A DNA stretch of 64,000 nucleotides from an uncultured delta proteobacterium (GCA_963823335.1 CAWGLD010000001.1:1216001-1280000); one strand, 5' to 3'. Positions 2 through 8,610 are shown, numbered from the stretch's first letter. The notes: generated by a model not told the origin, from the letters alone. Numbers and translations: made by a program.

Positions 2-814
2 AACGGATGCAGATTCTTTGCGGTAATGGTAGGTGTCCAAAAAGAAATATATGATCAGAAGCATACCAGACACCATCAGCATGTGGGGCATGATTTTAAA
101 TGTCCAGAAAAAAGTGACACCATGGAGGTAGCCCAGAAACAAGGGTGGGTCCCCCAGGGGTGTGAGCGACCCGCCCACATTGGCGACCAGGAAGATGAAA
201 AAAACCACCATGAAGGTTCTGTTTTTGCGATAGTTGTTGGCTCTCAGGAACGGACGTATCAAGAGCATGGCGGCCCCTGTGGTTCCCATCCAGGACGCCA
301 GGAGGGTACCGAGAATCAGTATGATGGTATTGACGACCGGTGTCCCCCTCAGGGAACCCCGTAATAAGATACCACCCGAAACCGTATAAAGCGACCAGAG
401 AAGGATGATAAATGGCACATAATCAACCAGGATGATATGCAGGATTTCATAAACGGCCCCGCCCCTGAAAACCCATAAAAAGGGAATGCCCAGAACGGCC
501 GCCCAAAAAGCGGAAATTTTGCCGAAATGATGATGCCAGAAATTTGGCAGGAGTAGGGGCAGCAGGGCGATGGAGAGCAGCATGCATGCAAAAGGGATAC
601 AGCTCCACAGGGGCAGAATTTCTCCAAGGTTGACATGCCCGCTCCCATGTGCCGATGCCTGGGTGGAACCATGTGCTGCAGGATCATCCGTGTTTTCCGG
701 AGCATGCCCGGTACTTGGGGTATCGGATGCGTGGGTTTCGGCAATCATCGGTACCGGCCAGAACAAGAAACACAGCAGGAATAAAAGGACAGCCATTGTT
801 TTTGGAAAACGCAT
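2..814 (-). CDS. IT-superfamily membrane transporter (CitMHS_2-like, usually annotated sodium:proton antiporter); truncated at the window edge
   Basis: Not in the ORF track; translated by hand from ATG at 814 (RBS GGAAAGG): MRFPKTMAVLLF...LASWMGTTGAAMLLIRPFLRAN...FFIFLVANVGGSLTPLGDPPLFLGY; open to the window edge. Confidence 0.85.
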   Translation of the reverse strand, partial: MRFPKTMAVLLFLLCFLFWPVPMIAETHASDTPSTGHAPENTDDPAAHGSTQASAHGSGHVNLGEILPLWSCIPFACMLLSIALLPLLLPNFWHHHFGKISAFWAAVLGIPFLWVFRGGAVYEILHIILVDYVPFIILLWSLYTVSGGILLRGSLRGTPVVNTIILILGTLLASWMGTTGAAMLLIRPFLRANNYRKNRTFMVVFFIFLVANVGGSLTPLGDPPLFLGYLHGVTFFWTFKIMPHMLMVSGMLLIIYFFLDTYHYRKESASV

Positions 815-1108
815 TTACAAGCACCTTTCCTTATAGTATCTTTTCATCGTTATCATTTTCATCGTCGTCATATAGATGCATAGAGTTTCGATTCTAAGGC
901 ATACCGGCTGTGCAACAGCGCCATCATCATTCTATCGTGGCGGAGGTAAGATAGTGAAAGCACATCCTATACCAAGTTTCAATATAATTCAACGCATGAT
1001 CCATAAACCAAAAAAAATAATTATTGCATTTTCAGATGGGTATGCTATCGAAGAAAACCTGCGTTTCCAATCCCGAAGCATCTGTTTCCTTACATGCTGG
1101 GGGGTTGC

Positions 1109-1342
1109 GTGAACCTCGATTACAAAAAGCATCGTGCATGGGCGGAAAATCTTTCCATTGTCATGCAGATAGGACTGACCATGGCAGGATGTGTTGGTTT
1201 TTGTTTTTTTATCGGTCTCACTCTTGACCGGTGGCTCGGCATTCGAGGACTTTTTACGGTGATTTTTATTCTTTTGGGGATTGCAGGCGGGGCCAATGTC
1301 GTCTATCGTCAGGTTATGGAGATCATCGAGCCAAAAAAGTAA
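1109..1342 (+). CDS. atpZ: AtpZ/AtpQ-family small membrane protein
   Basis: Two hydrophobic segments with GLTLDRWLG...ILLGIAGG; first gene of the atp cluster; GTG at 1109 preferred (ORF track starts at 1094). Confidence 0.8.
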   Translation: MNLDYKKHRAWAENLSIVMQIGLTMAGCVGFCFFIGLTLDRWLGIRGLFTVIFILLGIAGGANVVYRQVMEIIEPKK

Positions 1343-1361
1343 AGTGTCATGTTAGGGAAGA

Positions 1362-1748
1362 ATGGAAGCTATTCACCATACACAGAAAAAATTTGGATCC
1401 AGGGCCATGGTCATGGCTGTTATCGCCGGTATGATTTTTATCCTGGTGGGTCAAAAGTCGATTGCCAAAGGCTTGGTGCTCGGTTCTGTTTTCAGTGTCA
1501 TCAATTTTGTTCTGATCGGTGAAATTATGCCGATGATCATCACGGCATCCCGTAAGAGATCTGTTCTGTTCTCCTTTGCTTCGATGCTGTTTCGATTTCT
1601 GTTGTTATCGGCGCCCCTTCTTTTGTCGCTGAAAATGGAAAGCCTGAATTTTGCTGCTGCCACCGTCGGAATCTTTATGGTGCAGATCGTGATCATGGGA
1701 AGCCATCTTCTAAGGTTAATTTACCCCGAAGGGATGCAAGGGACGTAA
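1362..1748 (+). CDS. atpI: ATP synthase protein I (c-ring assembly factor)
   Basis: 128 aa, about 4 TM helices, GLVLGSVFSVINF motif; lies between atpZ and atpB. Confidence 0.8.
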   Translation: MEAIHHTQKKFGSRAMVMAVIAGMIFILVGQKSIAKGLVLGSVFSVINFVLIGEIMPMIITASRKRSVLFSFASMLFRFLLLSAPLLLSLKMESLNFAAATVGIFMVQIVIMGSHLLRLIYPEGMQGT

Positions 1749-1760
1749 CATAGGACTGTT

Positions 1761-2435
1761 ATGGGAGAACTGGGTAGAATACATCAGCTGATCATTCCGT
1801 TTTACGGACATGACATCACGTTGAATCTGGAAGTCATCCTCATGACGTGGATTGTTTTCTTTCTGTTGATCCTTGTGGGCTTTTTGTCCTCACGCAAGAG
1901 AGCCGTCTACCCCAAGGCCATGCAGGTCTTTGGAGAAATTTTTATCACCCAATTTTATCAGATCACCGAGGATGCGCTGGACAAGAAGATGGCAAAAACA
2001 TATGGTCCTATGATTTGTGCGCTTTTCATGTTTCTTGTGCTGGCAAACTGGCTCGGTATTATTCCCTATCTGGAGGAACCCACAAAGGATCTGAACACAC
2101 CCCTCAGCCTGGGTCTCATGGGGTTTGTGATTGCCCATGTGGCCGGTATTAAATCGAAGGGTTTTAAAGCATATGCCAGGGAATATTTTGAACCGATGTT
2201 TTTTATGATGCCGCTGAATGTCATTGGCGAGTTGGCCAAAATAGTTTCCATATCCTTTAGGCTTTTTGGAAACATCATGGGAGGATCGATCATTATCCTG
2301 GTGGTCTCTTACCTCACATACAGCGTACTCCTGCCGCCTCTGCTCAACGCATTTTTCGGTCTTTTTGTGGGGACGATACAGGCCTTTGTTTTTACCATGC
2401 TGACGGTTGTTTATATTTCGGTCCAGGTAAAGTAG
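1761..2435 (+). CDS. atpB: Fo ATP synthase subunit a
   Basis: PTKDLN, conserved Arg in SISFRLFGNI, and IQAFVFTMLT. Confidence 0.97.
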   Translation: MGELGRIHQLIIPFYGHDITLNLEVILMTWIVFFLLILVGFLSSRKRAVYPKAMQVFGEIFITQFYQITEDALDKKMAKTYGPMICALFMFLVLANWLGIIPYLEEPTKDLNTPLSLGLMGFVIAHVAGIKSKGFKAYAREYFEPMFFMMPLNVIGELAKIVSISFRLFGNIMGGSIIILVVSYLTYSVLLPPLLNAFFGLFVGTIQAFVFTMLTVVYISVQVK

Positions 2436-2438
2436 AAC

Positions 2439-3413
2439 ATGATTATGGATGTCCATACAGTTGTAACCCTTTCCGCATTCACCGGTGCCGGTGTCGCCAT
2501 GGGGCTGGGTGCCATCGGTGCCGCCATCGGAGAGGGCTATACCGCCGGTGTAGCGAATACCGCCATTTCCAGGAACCCGGAGATCTCCGGTGACATTTTC
2601 AAAAATATGCTGGTGGGACAGGCGGTTGCAGAATCTGCATCTATTTTTGCTCTGGTAATTGCGGTGCTGATGCTTTTTCTGGATGTTCCGACGGACAACC
2701 TGCTGAAGGGAGCGGCCCTTTTTGGCGCAGGACTTTGTATGGGGTTTGGTGCGGTGGGTTCGGGTGTGGGTTCTGGATTTCCAGGCGGACAGGCGTGTCT
2801 GGGTATTTCGCGTCAACCGGCCGCTGCATCCCGTTTGACCACCGGTATGTTGATCGGCTCCGCAGTATGCCAGACACCCGCCATTTTTTCCATGGTTATC
2901 GCATTGATGCTGATCTTTATGGATTTCAGCCACCTGCCGCTTGCCCCGACGTGGGCAGCTATTTTAGGTGCGGGACTGAGTACCGGTCTTGCAGCGATTG
3001 GTTCCGGTTATGGCGGTGGACTGGCGGCCGGTGCCAGCTGTGAAGGAATTTCCAGACAACCTGAATCGGTGGGCAATGTAACCACCGTAATGCTGGTGGG
3101 ACAAGCCGTCGCGCAAACACCATCCATTTTCGGATTGCTGGTCAGTTTTATTCTTATCTTCAAATCGTTTCCTGAATCATACACGTTGCAGGCATCCATG
3201 GCTCTGTTATCTGCAGGTGTCTGTATGGGATTCGGTGGTATCGGACCGGGTATCGGCAACGGTATGGCTGCTGAAGGAGCGGTACGGTGGGTCGCCCGTA
3301 ATGTGGAGAATGCCGGTGAACTCATGCGGATCATGCTGGTGGGACAGGCGGTCTCACAGTCGACAGCTATCTATGCCATGGTAGTGTCGCTGGTGTTGAT
3401 ATTTGTCGTGTAG
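2439..3413 (+). CDS. atpE: Fo subunit c with four tandem hairpins (324 aa)
   Basis: Four repeats of a Gly-rich helix, an R(N/Q)P-type loop and ML(V/I)G(Q/S)AVx(E/Q); only repeat 1 keeps the carboxylate. Confidence 0.92.
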   Translation: MIMDVHTVVTLSAFTGAGVAMGLGAIGAAIGEGYTAGVANTAISRNPEISGDIFKNMLVGQAVAESASIFALVIAVLMLFLDVPTDNLLKGAALFGAGLCMGFGAVGSGVGSGFPGGQACLGISRQPAAASRLTTGMLIGSAVCQTPAIFSMVIALMLIFMDFSHLPLAPTWAAILGAGLSTGLAAIGSGYGGGLAAGASCEGISRQPESVGNVTTVMLVGQAVAQTPSIFGLLVSFILIFKSFPESYTLQASMALLSAGVCMGFGGIGPGIGNGMAAEGAVRWVARNVENAGELMRIMLVGQAVSQSTAIYAMVVSLVLIFVV

Positions 3414-3504
3414 TTTTATTTATAGAATAATAGATGAAGTTTAATTAGCGGCGCAGCCGCGACACATAAAATCGTGTAACGATTTTATTAAGGAGGAACG
3501 ACAA

Positions 3505-3753
3505 ATGGCTATTGAAGGTGTTGATATTGTAAAAGCCGCGGCTTTTTTAGGCGCAGGTATCTCCATGGGTCTCGGTGCCATCGGCCCGGGCGTGGGTGAG
3601 GGAATGGTGGCTGCCAAGGCATGTGAAGCCATCGGCAAGAATCCGCGCGAGGCAGGACTGCTGACCCGGACCATGCTGGTGGGACAGGCCGTATCTGAGT
3701 CCACCGGTATCTATTCCCTGGTCATAGCGTTGCTGCTGTTGTTTGTGGTGTAG
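3505..3753 (+). CDS. atpE: Fo subunit c, single hairpin, Na+-binding signature
   Basis: P28, E32, V63, E65, S66, T67, Y70 (GPGVGEG...QAVSESTGIY); strong RBS TAAGGAGG. Confidence 0.97.
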   Translation: MAIEGVDIVKAAAFLGAGISMGLGAIGPGVGEGMVAAKACEAIGKNPREAGLLTRTMLVGQAVSESTGIYSLVIALLLLFVV

Positions 3754-3760
3754 TCCACCT

Positions 3761-4216
3761 ATGCAGATTATAAGTAACATAGCGCTCATCAGCATCAACG
3801 AGACCCTGGTGATCCAGTTGATCTCTTTTTTAATCTTTCTTTTCATTATCAACCGGATCATGATTCGGCCGCTACGGGCAACCATGGCGGAAAGGGATAA
3901 CCATATTCAAATGGTCCGGGAGGACATTCTCGATTCGAAGAAGGAACTCGAGGAGATCGTGGATGAATCAAACCAGGAGGAAAAAGAGATACGGCAGGCG
4001 GCCCTCCAGATCGTGGCCGAGATGGAAGGCCTTGGGCAGCATGAAGCCCACGACATCATTGGCGTGGCAAGGAAAGAAATTGCTGTCGTGAAAAAGCAAA
4101 CACAGGCTGAAATTGAGCGCCTTCTTGCCGAGGCCATGACATCCGTACAAAAAGAGGCTGAGATCCTTTCGGTTTCCGTCATGGAAAAGATCCTGGGTAG
4201 GAAGGTGTCACCATGA
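3761..4216 (+). CDS. atpF: Fo subunit b'
   Basis: INETLVIQLISFLIFLFIINRIMIRPL followed by a charged coiled coil; ATG at 3761. Confidence 0.88.
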   Translation: MQIISNIALISINETLVIQLISFLIFLFIINRIMIRPLRATMAERDNHIQMVREDILDSKKELEEIVDESNQEEKEIRQAALQIVAEMEGLGQHEAHDIIGVARKEIAVVKKQTQAEIERLLAEAMTSVQKEAEILSVSVMEKILGRKVSP

Positions 4217-4809
4217 CACCAATGGTTTTTAAAAACTGGAAAAGCATTGCCTGGTGGATGTTTTTTATGGTTATGGTGGTGACAACCACAGAGGCCCTGG
4301 GTGCGGAAGCGGCGGTTAACTGGCGCCCGACTTATGACAGTGTGATGCGCTGGCTCAACTTTGGGATACTGATCGTGCTCTTTTTCAGGTATGCCCGCAA
4401 ACCGTTGGTAACCTTTTTAAACGGGAAATCCAGGCAGATCGAAGAAAACATCAAAAGTGTCGAAGCGGAAAAAGAGGCCATCAGGATACGTATCGATGAA
4501 CTGCAAAGGGAACGAGAAGAAGGCCGCCAACAACTGCACCAGATTCGGGACAGAGTCATTTCCCAGGGAAAGCTGAAAAAGCAGAAAATCATCGATGACG
4601 CCAAAAAAGAGAGTCATCTGTTATTGGAAAGTGCCAAACAGAAAATAGAGCATGAAATAACATCTGCACGAAAGAAGCTGCAAGCTGAAATAGTTGATCA
4701 GTCCATTGACCTGGCCATGCAAAAACTCCCCCAAATGATGACCGATCAGGATACCCAAAACAGCCTGAAAATGTATCTTGAAGGGATTCATTCCCTGACC
4801 AAATCCTGA
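4213..4809 (+). CDS. atpF: Fo subunit b with N-terminal extension
   Basis: RWLNFGILIVLFFRYARKPL followed by a coiled coil; ATGA overlap with b'. Confidence 0.88.
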   Translation: MTPMVFKNWKSIAWWMFFMVMVVTTTEALGAEAAVNWRPTYDSVMRWLNFGILIVLFFRYARKPLVTFLNGKSRQIEENIKSVEAEKEAIRIRIDELQREREEGRQQLHQIRDRVISQGKLKKQKIIDDAKKESHLLLESAKQKIEHEITSARKKLQAEIVDQSIDLAMQKLPQMMTDQDTQNSLKMYLEGIHSLTKS

Positions 4810-5109: not shown

Positions 5110-5658
5110 ATGAATAAAACTCAAGTGAAAGAGATAATGATTCCGATCTTGAACTACGTGACAGTTAAAAAAGAAAATACCCTGGTTGAGGTTTTACAGT
5201 CTTTGGAACAGGCCCGGAAGTCAGAGAACGAACATGCCCATAGAGACGCAATCGTGGTTGATGCAAACGGTGTTTTTGTAGGCAAAGTTACCATGATCGA
5301 TGTTTTTTGGGCCCTGGAGCCTAATTATTCAAAGGTTGAACAGCAACAGGAACAGGGCGTACTGACTGCCGATTTTGTCATGAAAGCCGCCAAAGATTTT
5401 AATTTATGGATTGAACCCACGCAAACCATTTGCGAGCGAGGGAGCCGCTTAACGGTTTCCGATGTAATGCATACGCCGGAAAAGATGGAATATATCGAAG
5501 AAACAGCCACCATTGATAACGCATTGCATTTATATGTTCTGGGCATCCATCAGCCACTTATCGTGAACAATAAGGACGCGAAGGTTACAGGCGTTTTACG
5601 GTTTGGTGATGTATTTGAAGTCGTCAGACAACGTTTGTTGAACTGCAGTGTTTCTTAA
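5110..5658 (+). CDS. CBS domain protein
   Basis: VKEIMIP...IVVDANGVFVGKVTMID and VSDVMHTP...VTGVLRFGD form a CBS pair. Confidence 0.85.
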   Translation: MNKTQVKEIMIPILNYVTVKKENTLVEVLQSLEQARKSENEHAHRDAIVVDANGVFVGKVTMIDVFWALEPNYSKVEQQQEQGVLTADFVMKAAKDFNLWIEPTQTICERGSRLTVSDVMHTPEKMEYIEETATIDNALHLYVLGIHQPLIVNNKDAKVTGVLRFGDVFEVVRQRLLNCSVS

Positions 5659-5715
5659 ATTTTCGACATGACTTCTAAAATAAAAGTTAAGGAATAACGT
5701 ATAGATATAACGCCA

Positions 5716-7557
5716 ATGAATTTTCCCCCACCACCCAATACCCATGCCATGGCCGTGCTGATCCTTACCATTGTTGCACTGGTCCTGTTTACCCGTGAAA
5801 AGATACCCCTAGAATCCTCCAGTTTCCTGGTGCTCATCGGTCTGGCCGTTGGGTTCGAAGTCTTTCCGTTCCAGGCGAACGGAGGCGTTTTACACGCCGT
5901 GGACTTTTTCCGGGGTTTCGGACACGAGGCGCTGGTTGCCGTCTGCGCTCTGATGATCGCCGGGCAGGGTATCGTCCGCACGGGGGCGCTGGAACCCGTG
6001 GGAAGGGTGCTGACGCGGTTCTGGAAGGTGAGCCCGAGCATCTCCCTGCTGCTGACTCTTATTGTTGGAGCCCTTATCAGTGCGTTTATAAACAATGTTC
6101 CCGTTGTCGTATTGTTTCTCCCTATTTTGATCAACGTTTCCCTGCGCACGGGTATGAAGGCCTCTTCCGTGTTGATGCCCATGGGATTCGCCACCCTGCT
6201 GGGGGGCACGTGCACCACCATCGGAACCTCCACAAATCTGCTGGTGGTCTCCGTGGCAGCAGAGATGGGCTTGAAACGGATGGATATGTTCGATTTCCTG
6301 GTGCCGGCAGCCATTGCCGGAAGCATCGGTATCGCTTATCTCTGGCTCGTGGCGCCTCGGATCATACCGGAGCGTGAACCAACCATGGCAGACACATCTC
6401 CCAGGGTTTTCTCTGCCCATCTTGCCATTCCTGAAGGAAGCCCGATTGAAGGAAAGACGCTGGCCCAAGCCAGAAAAAAAGTAGATGGGGCCATGAAAGT
6501 CACAAGCGTGGAGCGTGGGCTTGACAATTTCATGATACCCTTTCCAACTCTGGTGCTGAAAGCCGGCGACCATCTGATTATCCGTGACACGCCCGATCGC
6601 TTGAAGGAGTTTGAAAAGATACTGGAGGGAACGCTCTATGCAGATGACGCCATGGTCGCACCTGTTGACGATGAGCACCCGTTAAAGGATGAAGATCAGC
6701 AGATCGCGGAGGTCGTCCTCATAGAAGGCTCCCGTCTTGCGGGAAGAACTCTCAGCGGAACCCGATTCGCGGACCGGTACGGGATGATTACCCTGGCCAT
6801 ACACAGGGCCGGCATTCACCCGGAAAAGTTATACGACGAAATCGGGGATATTCGTCTGAAAGCCGGGGATATCCTCCTGGTTCAGGGACCCCGAGAACAG
6901 ATCGCCGGTCTCAAAAAAGAAAAGGATTTTCTCGTGCTGGATGCCACGGCGGATCTGCCTTTTGCCCGTAAGGCACCGTTGGCCCTGCTCATTATGCTGG
7001 GTATCATTGTTTCGGCCGCCGTAGGGTTTCTGCCCATCGCCATCAGCGCATCGCTCGGGGCGCTGTTGATGATTTTCACGGGATGCCTGGGATGGCGTGA
7101 TGCCACCAGCGCACTGAATGCGCAGGTTATCCTTATCGTGACCGCAAGTCTCGCCATCGGGGTTGCAATGCTCAAGACCGGCGGTGCTGATTACCTTGCA
7201 CAACTTTTTGTTGCTCTGGCAGGGGGCACTTCGCCGGTCCTAGTGATCAGCGGGCTGATGCTTCTGATGGGCATCCTCACCAACATCGTTTCCAACAACG
7301 CAGCAGCGGTCATCGGCACCCCCATCGCCGTTTCAATTGCCGCCCAGATGGGACAGCCGGCCGAACCGTTTGTCCTGGCCGTGCTCTTCGGAGCCAATAT
7401 GAGCTATGCCACCCCCATGGCCTACAAAACCAATCTCCTCGTCATGAACGCTGGGAACTACACCTTCAATGATTTTCTTCGAGTTGGGGTACCGCTGGTC
7501 CTGATAATGTGGGTTACGCTTTCCTGGTTGCTTCCGACCCTTTACGGTATAAAATAA
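5716..7557 (+). CDS. SLC13/DASS-family permease with two TrkA-C domains (anion:Na+ symporter)
   Basis: SAFINN, GGTCTTIGTSTNL, TNIVSNNA and YATPMAYKTN motifs; soluble RCK_C region in the middle. Confidence 0.92.
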   Translation: MNFPPPPNTHAMAVLILTIVALVLFTREKIPLESSSFLVLIGLAVGFEVFPFQANGGVLHAVDFFRGFGHEALVAVCALMIAGQGIVRTGALEPVGRVLTRFWKVSPSISLLLTLIVGALISAFINNVPVVVLFLPILINVSLRTGMKASSVLMPMGFATLLGGTCTTIGTSTNLLVVSVAAEMGLKRMDMFDFLVPAAIAGSIGIAYLWLVAPRIIPEREPTMADTSPRVFSAHLAIPEGSPIEGKTLAQARKKVDGAMKVTSVERGLDNFMIPFPTLVLKAGDHLIIRDTPDRLKEFEKILEGTLYADDAMVAPVDDEHPLKDEDQQIAEVVLIEGSRLAGRTLSGTRFADRYGMITLAIHRAGIHPEKLYDEIGDIRLKAGDILLVQGPREQIAGLKKEKDFLVLDATADLPFARKAPLALLIMLGIIVSAAVGFLPIAISASLGALLMIFTGCLGWRDATSALNAQVILIVTASLAIGVAMLKTGGADYLAQLFVALAGGTSPVLVISGLMLLMGILTNIVSNNAAAVIGTPIAVSIAAQMGQPAEPFVLAVLFGANMSYATPMAYKTNLLVMNAGNYTFNDFLRVGVPLVLIMWVTLSWLLPTLYGIK

Positions 7558-7614
7558 CACCCGAAATCGTATCAATTGCATCGATACTATCTAAATTTCA
7601 ACTGCGCGACGATA

Positions 7615-8610
7615 TTAGCCAACAGTTCCAGCGAAGAAACAGGATACCCTATGGCCCTGTTCTATTTCTTTAAAAGGGGGCTCCTGGGTACGACAGACAT
7701 CTTTTACATAGAGGCAGCGCGTGTGAAACCGGCACCCTTTTGGCGGGTCGATGGGGCTGGGGACATCTCCCTTCAGAATGATCCGTTTTTGTTTTATGGT
7801 GGGGTCCGGGGTGGGAGATGCGGATAACAAGGCCTGGGTATAGGGGTGCAGGGGGCGCCGATAGAGTTTTTCACTGTCGGCGAGCTCCACGAGTTTACCC
7901 AGGTACATGACGGCCACCCGGTCGCTGATGTGTTCTACAACACTCAGGTCGTGGGAGATGAACAGGTAGGTCAAGTTGAACTCCTCCTGCAGATCTTGAA
8001 AAAGATTGATGACCTGTGCCTGGATCGAAACGTCCAGCGCTGATACGGCTTCATCACAGATGATAAGCTGGGGGTTGAGAGCCAGCGCCCGCGCAACACC
8101 GATTCGCTGACGTTGCCCACCTGAAAACTGGTGCGGATAGCGTCGCATGTGTTCCCGTTTCAGCCCCACGACTTCCAGAAGTTCCAAAACCCTGGCATCT
8201 CTTTCTCTGCGGTCTCCGACGCCATGAACCAGCAGGGGTTCTCCGATGATATGGGCGACTGTTTTCCTCGGGTTCAATGAAGAGAAAGGGTCCTGAAAGA
8301 CGATCTGCATTTCTCTTCGCAGGCTGCGGACTTGTGCAGGGCTGTATTCGAGAATGTTTTCCTCGTTGAAATAAACAGCGCCGGCCGTGGGTTCTTCCAG
8401 TCGCACAATGGCGCGACCCAGGGTCGATTTTCCGCACCCGGATTCACCTACGAGACCCAGGGTTTCCCCTTTGTTGATGGAGATATCCACACCATCGACC
8501 GCTTTGACGGAGGCAATCTCTTTTAAGAACACGCCGCCAAGAATCGGATAATGTTTTACCAGCCCTTCGGCTCTCAAAAGCGGTTTTATTCCGGAAGCGG
8601 TATCATGCAT
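7615..8610 (-). CDS. dppF: Peptide ABC transporter ATP-binding subunit
   Basis: [32 protein letters not shown]. Confidence 0.93.

Follow-up and report, generated by a model that had tools for sequence, protein, structure and literature searches.

Two genes for c subunits in one Fo operon

We analyzed a stretch of 64,000 nucleotides (nt) from the genome of an uncultured delta proteobacterium (GCA_963823335.1 CAWGLD010000001.1:1216001-1280000; this whole stretch is the window referred to below). The source is a sulfate-reducer-type bacterium, and the window carries an Fo operon of gene order atpZ-I-a-c4-c-b'-b. Two genes for subunit c stand side by side in this operon, one for a protein of 324 amino acids (aa) with four hairpins (large c) and the other for a protein of 82 aa with one hairpin (small c). 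A sequence-only reading of this DNA had proposed that the two proteins form a hybrid Na+ ring, in which large c retains two complementary half-sites at its ends and contributes three blank positions between them. The operon consists of the following features, with positions counted in the window.

1094..1342, + strand: atpZ-like small membrane protein (ATPase_gene1; PF09527, E 4.6e-15), its position kept in related loci
1362..1748, + strand: atpI (PF03899, E 1.8e-6), kept in related loci
1761..2435, + strand: atpB, Fo subunit a; arginine motif SFRLFGN (PF00119, E 8.8e-50)
2439..3413, + strand: large c, 324 aa, four hairpins (open reading frame; PF00137 x4, E 8.8e-57)
3414..3504, + strand: spacer between large c and small c (from reading the sequence)
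3505..3753, + strand: small c, 82 aa (open reading frame; PF00137 x1, E 1.3e-18)
3743..4216, + strand: Fo subunit b' (PF00430, E 1.3e-16), start uncertain, TTG at 3743 or ATG at 3761
4213..4809, + strand: Fo subunit b, last gene of the operon (PF00430, E 6.5e-16)

Large c has one ion-binding carboxylate in four hairpins

The open reading frames, together with four matches to PF00137 in the longer protein and one in the shorter, bore out the claim of two c genes and a four-hairpin large c; the four matches in the 324-aa protein reached 189.7 bits (cut-off 24). The large c gene starts 4 nt past the atpB stop codon. We aligned the four hairpins (H1 to H4) and small c with MAFFT and read their site residues in the numbering of Ilyobacter tartaricus c, given below as position 32 / positions 63-70. 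The residues obtained were identical to those that the sequence-only reading had listed for H1 to H4 and for small c.

2439..2690, + strand: H1, aa 1-84; E / VAESASIF (Glu32, Glu65, Ser66, Ala67, Phe70)
2691..2933, + strand: H2, aa 85-165; S / VCQTPAIF (Gln65-Thr66-Pro67, Phe70); blank
2934..3179, + strand: H3, aa 166-247; G / VAQTPSIF (Gln65-Thr66-Pro67, Phe70); blank
3180..3413, + strand: H4, aa 248-324 plus stop; N / VSQSTAIY (Gln65, with Ser66-Thr67-Tyr70 retained)
3505..3753, + strand: small c; E / VSESTGIY (Glu32, Val63, Glu65, Ser66, Thr67, Tyr70)

The ion-binding carboxylate of the C-terminal helix was present in H1 alone, and Gln replaces Glu in H2 to H4. H1 had been described as keeping only the acidic half of a site; its Glu stood, but H1 also retains Ser66, and its losses are confined to Thr67 (replaced by Ala) and Tyr70 (replaced by Phe). 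Large c has the Na+ ligand set only across subunit borders, H1 bringing the Glu half and H4 the Ser-Thr-Tyr half, and small c carries the full two-carboxylate set of Glu32, Val63, Glu65, Ser66, Thr67 and Tyr70. Pairwise identity among the hairpins, and between them and small c, was 36-51%. The F-type Arg was found in all four cytoplasmic loops of large c; this loop Arg of c subunits contacts the central stalk. An AlphaFold2 (AF2) model of large c showed four helical hairpins, with a predicted local distance difference test score (pLDDT) of 95.3 and a predicted template modeling score (pTM) of 0.91. Its best fold match was 4bem_J, with a root-mean-square deviation of 1.6 A over 156 columns, and solved chains covered at most half of the model.

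The residue pattern is widespread, conserved and under purifying selection

A protein search yielded 2348 relatives, and 212 genomes (one genome per species) encoded a relative; hairpin counts were taken on the best 120 proteins and locus counts on the best 80 loci. Among the best 120 homologues, 49 had four hairpins, 55 had five and 16 had six. The first hairpin carried Glu65 in 119 of the 120, followed by Ser66, Ala or Ser at 67, and Phe70, while the middle hairpins carried Gln65 in 326 of 327 cases, as Gln-Thr-Pro/Ala with Phe or Leu at position 70. In the last hairpin, Ser66-Thr67-Tyr70 was present in 120/120 and Gln65 in 117/120. The exceptions were three proteins with an extra Glu in the last hairpin and one odd sequence of 434 aa (P0001). 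The five- and six-hairpin forms contained H2-type blank copies inserted between unchanged H1-type and H4-type ends, and the five-hairpin form was found in the same operon type. These counts agree with the conservation that had been foreseen, namely E in H1, Q in H2 to H4 and STxxY in H4.

All 80 species loci contained a four-hairpin gene with Glu65 in H1 alone and Ser-Thr-Tyr in H4. The small c gene followed directly after the large c gene in 76 of them, and the other four ended at a contig edge. The gene pair is not a product of chance: it was found again, site residues included, in 76 of the 80 species loci. The median ratio of nonsynonymous to synonymous substitution rates (dN/dS) against 48 orthologues was 0.10 for H1, 0.07 for H2, 0.05 for H3 and 0.05 for H4, values that are rough because dS was saturated and finite in 26-38 of the 48 comparisons. 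By this measure the blank hairpins were constrained at least as strongly as H1. Since the pattern is conserved in 80/80 loci and, five exceptions apart, in the 120 homologues, and purifying selection acts on every hairpin, we conclude that it was selected and did not arise by decay, as the sequence-only reading had held.

Of the 151 Desulfobacterales genomes sampled, 88 had a strong match (E 1e-60 or better); the corresponding counts were 72 of 124 for high-quality genomes and 67 of 104 by genus. One carrier, Desulfosarcina widdelii PP31 (L021), is cultured.

Small c has a complete Na+ signature and a strong ribosome binding site

The complete site ascribed to small c was confirmed both by the alignment and by its relatives, in which the site reads E/V[SA]ESTGIY in all 75 complete copies. 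In 15 aligned relatives, small c was 87-98% identical to the window copy, and its C-terminal helix was wholly invariant. The nearest solved relatives of small c were Acetobacterium woodii c1 and c2/3, I. tartaricus c and Fusobacterium nucleatum c, all from Na+ rings of 11 hairpins (ring sizes from PMC3692424 and from Table 1 of PMC7594442). Because these relatives all belong to 11-hairpin Na+ rings, we adopted a ring of about 11 hairpins as a working guess.

The spacer at 3414-3504 contains a perfect ribosome binding site (RBS), AAGGAGG, at 3490-3496, and two short inverted repeats upstream of it, at 3448-3460 and 3468-3486. Spacer length in relatives ranges from about 20 to 400 nt. A promoter and terminator consensus scan returned nothing exceeding the shuffled expectation. 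The RBS of small c matched AGGAGG at 6/6 positions in 52 of 75 loci and at 5/6 in 18, while that of large c matched at 4/6 positions or fewer in 77 of 80 loci. This asymmetry fits a complex that would contain few large and many small subunits.

A complex prediction for large c with small c gave a score of 0.60, compared with 0.00 for the best of three controls, although likeness to solved c-rings may explain the score. Of 80 solved complexes, 58 reached the mark used for this prediction, as did 2 of 110 mismatched pairs; passing scores of 0.60 or less were obtained for only 7 of the 80 solved complexes but for both of the passing mismatches. The prediction runs shared at least 97% of contacts, and the pLDDT of the partner was at least 83. 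From the adjacency of the genes, the RBS strengths and this weak complex prediction, we infer that large c and small c most likely occupy one ring.

The split Na+ site would leave three consecutive junctions blank

In the F. nucleatum and I. tartaricus rings, according to the accessible part of PMC3692424, the Na+ site is split between neighbors, with Glu32/Glu65 from one subunit and the Val63 carbonyl and Ser66 from the other; Tyr70 and Ser66 hydrogen-bond Glu65, and Thr67 holds a water. For the fused subunit NtpK of Enterococcus hirae, the accessible part of PMC2359735 equates Thr64, Leu61 and Tyr68 of hairpin 1 with Ser66B, Val63B and Tyr70B, and Gln110 and Glu139 of hairpin 2 with Gln32A and Glu65A. 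In the A. woodii c1 chain, the site residues are Q/VAETSGIF for the first hairpin and Q/VAQTTGIY for the second, and the geometry of c1 was derived from this chain sequence together with the description of NtpK. In these solved fused c subunits, the Ser/Tyr donor is the hairpin N-terminal of the Glu donor. Since the Ser/Tyr donor precedes the Glu donor in both NtpK and c1, the Glu of H1 would face the preceding subunit and not H2. Contact of this Glu with H2 was the geometry that the sequence-only reading had named as speaking against its proposal; the handedness of NtpK and A. woodii c1 is the opposite. The junctions of large c are accordingly predicted as follows.

Preceding subunit to H1: complete
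H1 to H2: blank
H2 to H3: blank
H3 to H4: blank
H4 to following subunit: complete

The three consecutive blank positions that had been claimed for each large c thus correspond to the junctions H1-H2, H2-H3 and H3-H4. The further claim, that the ends of large c complete sites with small c, was supported by both the conservation and the geometry, with the caveat that small c is not the only possible neighbor, because an H4-to-H1 contact between two large c subunits would be equally complete.

A relative that is 57% identical supports this geometry. In its locus (L097; G122:C1:923000-936000), the genes run atpZ-I-c4-a-c-b'-b, so that the a gene separates those for c (5607-6572 and 7297-7617), and the hairpins of its large c read E..F, Q..TTY, E..STY and E..STY, H2 alone being blank. 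Tyr70 is absent only from H1, which precedes the blank H2, and the locus serves as a natural control.

A general rule, that Tyr70 is kept only before a Glu65 hairpin, was also tried and failed in 106 complete multi-hairpin representatives, where it is a tendency only; it holds in the close clade and in L097. In the 106 representatives, the acid was present in the first hairpin of 95 and Tyr70 in the last hairpin of 97. What holds generally is the retention of a full site wherever two polypeptides meet, which is also the design of A. woodii c1.

The representative library also contained chains with 15, 12, 10, 8 and 7 hairpins (P0152, P0200, P0225, P0223 and P0207, of 1139, 968, 784, 631 and 524 aa, respectively), with Glu in every hairpin and Tyr70 in nearly all. 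These c-type proteins of 7 to 15 hairpins may be whole or half rings in one polypeptide.

The operon encodes an Fo without its own F1

No gene for delta, alpha, gamma, beta or epsilon was found within 8 kb of the module in any of the 80 loci. The b' and b subunits of the module are 27% and 26% identical to their counterparts in the F1 operon, each of which is the closest match, and subunit a is 33% identical to the other a of the genome, with the Arg motif present in both. We compared Fo and F1 gene counts in nine genomes.

Own genome (completeness 93.9%): one alpha/beta pair plus one delta; two a subunits plus two c loci
G122, G081, G063 and G144 (near-closed): 1 alpha/beta pair each; 2 a subunits each
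G046: 2 alpha/beta pairs, one of them in a cluster of N-ATPase-like order; 3 a subunits
D. widdelii PP31 and two further genomes: c loci equal alpha/beta pairs plus one

These genomes hold one more Fo than F1. The canonical set of the own genome is split, with atpZ-I-a-c on contig 8 (C8:53477-54490; L007 9427-11199) and b'-b-delta-alpha-gamma-beta-epsilon on contig 5 (C5:23094-29316; L014 5094-11316). The site of its c subunit is Q32 / MIESLCIY; position 67 is Leu, so that the subunit is probably of the H+ type. In that case, a single F1 in this cell would be served by an H+ motor and a Na+ motor.

Because the module encodes a full stator (a, b and b') without delta or F1 genes, we infer that its motor docks on the F1 of the cell. 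That this would be the same F1 and delta that the canonical Fo uses is suggested by b' and b, which are nearest to their F1-operon counterparts, and by the F-type Arg kept in the loops of large c.

In G001 (Desulfosarcina widdelii; about 4.018-4.023 Mb) and in G046 (C1, about 17.7-22.7 kb), genes for beta, a or c, and then alpha lie within 5 kb, an order that we take to be that of N-ATPases. Since these two carriers have both systems, the large-c module is not simply a substitute for an N-ATPase. N-ATPases have a characteristic gene order with atpQ and atpR, which the module does not share.

A proposed rotor with an ion-blind arc

With moderate confidence, we favor the reading that large c is a rotor subunit of a second, Na+-type Fo, most likely sharing its ring with many copies of the 82-aa c. 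Large c would probably be present in one or a few copies beside many small c. Each Na+ site would be split, with Glu65 and residue 32 from one hairpin and the Val63 carbonyl, Ser66, Thr67 (via water) and Tyr70 from the hairpin before it. H1 would give the Glu half to a site that the preceding subunit completes, H4 would give its Ser-Thr-Tyr half to the Glu of the following subunit, and the three internal junctions (Gln65-Thr66-Pro67, Phe70) would be permanently neutral. One large c would then occupy four ring positions and carry one ion. As a working guess for an 11-hairpin ring, large c subunits of four, five or six hairpins combined with seven, six or five small c would leave 8, 7 or 6 sites, respectively; a ring with 8 sites, for example, would use about 2.7 Na+ per ATP versus 3.7. 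With a full stator and neither delta nor F1 genes of its own, the motor would dock on the single F1 that is also served by the canonical, probably H+-type Fo. The chances that its main direction is ATP synthesis from a Na+ gradient or Na+ pumping seem to us evenly balanced; A. woodii and enzymes with V-type c subunits synthesize ATP, according to the accessible part of PMC9171764.

Several points weigh against this reading. The membership of large c in the ring is deduced from sequence, and the complex prediction passed only weakly, for c subunits that resemble solved complexes. A ring made of large c copies alone also yields complete H4-to-H1 sites. In the 106 representatives, all-acid proteins excluded, an acid-bearing hairpin followed one without Tyr at 85 junctions. 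When only representatives with 40% identity or more to the query were counted, for which the Tyr70/Glu65 junction table reads 4 / 1 / 15 / 79, 15 of 19 Glu hairpins were preceded by a hairpin without Tyr70; because many Glu hairpins follow such hairpins, Tyr70 is not strictly required. We know of no precedent for an arc of three (up to five) consecutive ion-blind positions. By our own reasoning, the torque of F1 would make such an arc difficult to cross during synthesis, and clustered blanks would be a poor means of altering the average gear ratio. To our knowledge, two Fo types sharing one F1 have been shown in no organism. Finally, the genome is 93.9% complete and a second F1 could be missing from it, although the near-closed relatives argue otherwise.

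Alternative explanations

Large c could instead form a ring by itself, for example of three copies with 12 hairpins and 3 sites, which would use about one Na+ per ATP and act as a high-gear, ATP-driven Na+ pump, while small c would form a separate ring or be a minor partner. The Ser-Thr-Tyr of H4 and the Glu32/Glu65 of H1 are as complementary to each other as large c is to small c, and by our own arithmetic a four-hairpin arc in a 12-hairpin ring equals one 120-degree step of F1. We nevertheless regard a self-ring as unlikely, given that small c is nearly invariant and directly next in 76/76 loci that reach that far, that it has a strong RBS and large c a weak one, and that the five-hairpin forms, which share this operon type, would have to close rings at 10 or 15 hairpins.

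It is also quite unlikely, in our judgment, that the architecture is as proposed and the coupling ion is H+ instead of Na+. The ion specificity was read from the residues alone, and sites with two carboxylates can shift towards H+, as described for Methanosarcina acetivorans in the accessible part of PMC3692424. Small c, on the other hand, lacks none of the ligands that make up the Na+ sites of F. nucleatum and I. tartaricus, and its nearest solved relatives all form Na+ rings, while the other c of the genome has Leu at 67, which fits one H+ and one Na+ motor.

A device that works without F1, such as a gated Na+ conductor or another rotary device whose channel closes when the blank arc parks at subunit a, would account for the lack of delta and F1 genes near the operon in 80 loci and for the one Fo in excess of F1. 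The operon retains two stalk proteins of the b type, which are known for no role other than holding F1, and all four loops of large c keep the Arg assigned to central stalk contact, so that we consider such a device very unlikely. That large c is no working rotor part, and is instead an assembly template or regulator of a small-c ring or an inactive paralogue, might be thought from its three hairpins unable to bind an ion, but is highly improbable given the strong purifying selection on each hairpin, the precise conservation of the neutral Gln-Thr-Pro residues, the retention of exactly the ring-interface residues in the end hairpins, and A. woodii c1, which is a genuine ring member according to the accessible part of PMC9171764.

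Relation to known rotors

A. woodii c1 (PDB 4BEM chain J) was the best match of large c in both sequence (E 1.6e-24) and fold. It is likewise an F-type multi-hairpin c beside a one-hairpin Na+ c, with Glu65 and Phe70 in hairpin 1 and with Gln65 and Thr-Thr..Tyr70 in its last hairpin. However, A. woodii c1 has two hairpins and one blank, whereas large c is built of four hairpins, three of the positions in a row being blank, and its relatives reach five or six hairpins with up to five consecutive blanks; the blank hairpins here carry a conserved Gln-Thr-Pro motif, unlike A. woodii c1. Furthermore, the A. woodii c genes reportedly lie within a complete F1Fo operon, in contrast to the module described here, which lacks delta and F1. 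The A. woodii ring contains nine one-hairpin c subunits and one two-hairpin c with a single site (accessible part of PMC9171764). Most likely, the module extends the hybrid-rotor design of A. woodii c1 and does so in a conserved Fo-only operon.

The c11 rings of F. nucleatum (PDB 3ZK1), which has the two-carboxylate Na+ motif, and I. tartaricus (1YCE) share the ligands Val63, Ser66, Thr67 and Tyr70 with small c, and both H1 and small c have Glu32 plus Glu65, but each of these rings is assembled from copies of a single one-hairpin subunit, and all of its positions are active. The multi-hairpin c subunits of V/A-type enzymes (E. hirae NtpK and archaeal proteins) likewise have fused hairpins and have lost some sites; the accessible part of PMC9171764 mentions hairpin numbers of 1, 2, 3 and 13 for archaeal c subunits. 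In these proteins, however, blanks alternate with sites or are few, no member with a single site in 4-6 hairpins being reported, and an F-type stator of a, b and b' accompanies none of them. The N-ATPase, encoded by an accessory Na+-type F-like ATPase operon (PMC2881411), is likewise a second ATPase-type gene set of marine bacteria, probably for Na+. It has, however, its own alpha, beta, gamma and epsilon and another gene order, whereas the module has no F1 genes. We found no description of an F-type c with 4-6 hairpins in the searchable literature, with supplements and most subscription journals outside the search, and A. woodii is the only hybrid listed in the accessible part of a 2020 review (PMC7594442).

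Possible roles of the arc

How many ions each ATP costs, a central quantity in bioenergetics, is fixed by the count of ion sites in one turn of the rotor. Among the F-type rings described, that of A. woodii alone has a silent position, with one blank in eleven hairpins; here a very common lineage of marine sulfate reducers encodes rotors with three to five consecutive silent positions, with the interface residues trimmed so that each end hairpin keeps only the half-site needed by its outside neighbor. Such a rotor tests models of torque generation, which assume even site spacing, and the Fo-only operon raises the question of whether one F1 serves two motors with different ions. Because at least one carrier, Desulfosarcina widdelii PP31, is cultured, these questions are directly testable.

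It is conceivable, though we find it doubtful, that more than half of the sampled Desulfobacterales have an H+ Fo and a Na+ Fo exchangeable on one F1, with a single 4-6-hairpin subunit per Na+ rotor and an arc that does more than change the gear. If this were true, the rotor would have a fixed ion-blind arc of roughly 100-200 degrees, which could set a defined rotor phase relative to the central stalk, or could park without a carboxylate at subunit a and thereby close off the route for Na+ at a low gradient or in a motor that has no F1 attached.

Flanking genes and RNA-library contigs

Upstream of the operon, a CitMHS_2 permease of the ion-transporter superfamily is encoded at 2-814 (- strand), and it was kept, in divergent orientation, in 18 of 80 related loci. 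An unrelated CBS protein (5110-5658) and a CitMHS permease with two TrkA_C domains (5716-7557, + strand), of the ion-transporter superfamily as well, lie 3' of the b gene and were kept in 0/80 related loci. Because they are poorly or not conserved across the 80 loci, the flanking permeases and the CBS protein were left out of the system.

Short contigs from four estuary RNA libraries covered most of 1094-4809, including both c genes, at 95% identity or more, which hints at transcription of the operon, with DNA carry-over possible. Operon parts left uncovered in single RNA runs have no bearing either way. In contigs that a close strain contributed to the RNA libraries, the match to the window breaks off precisely in this spacer, at 3414-3418.

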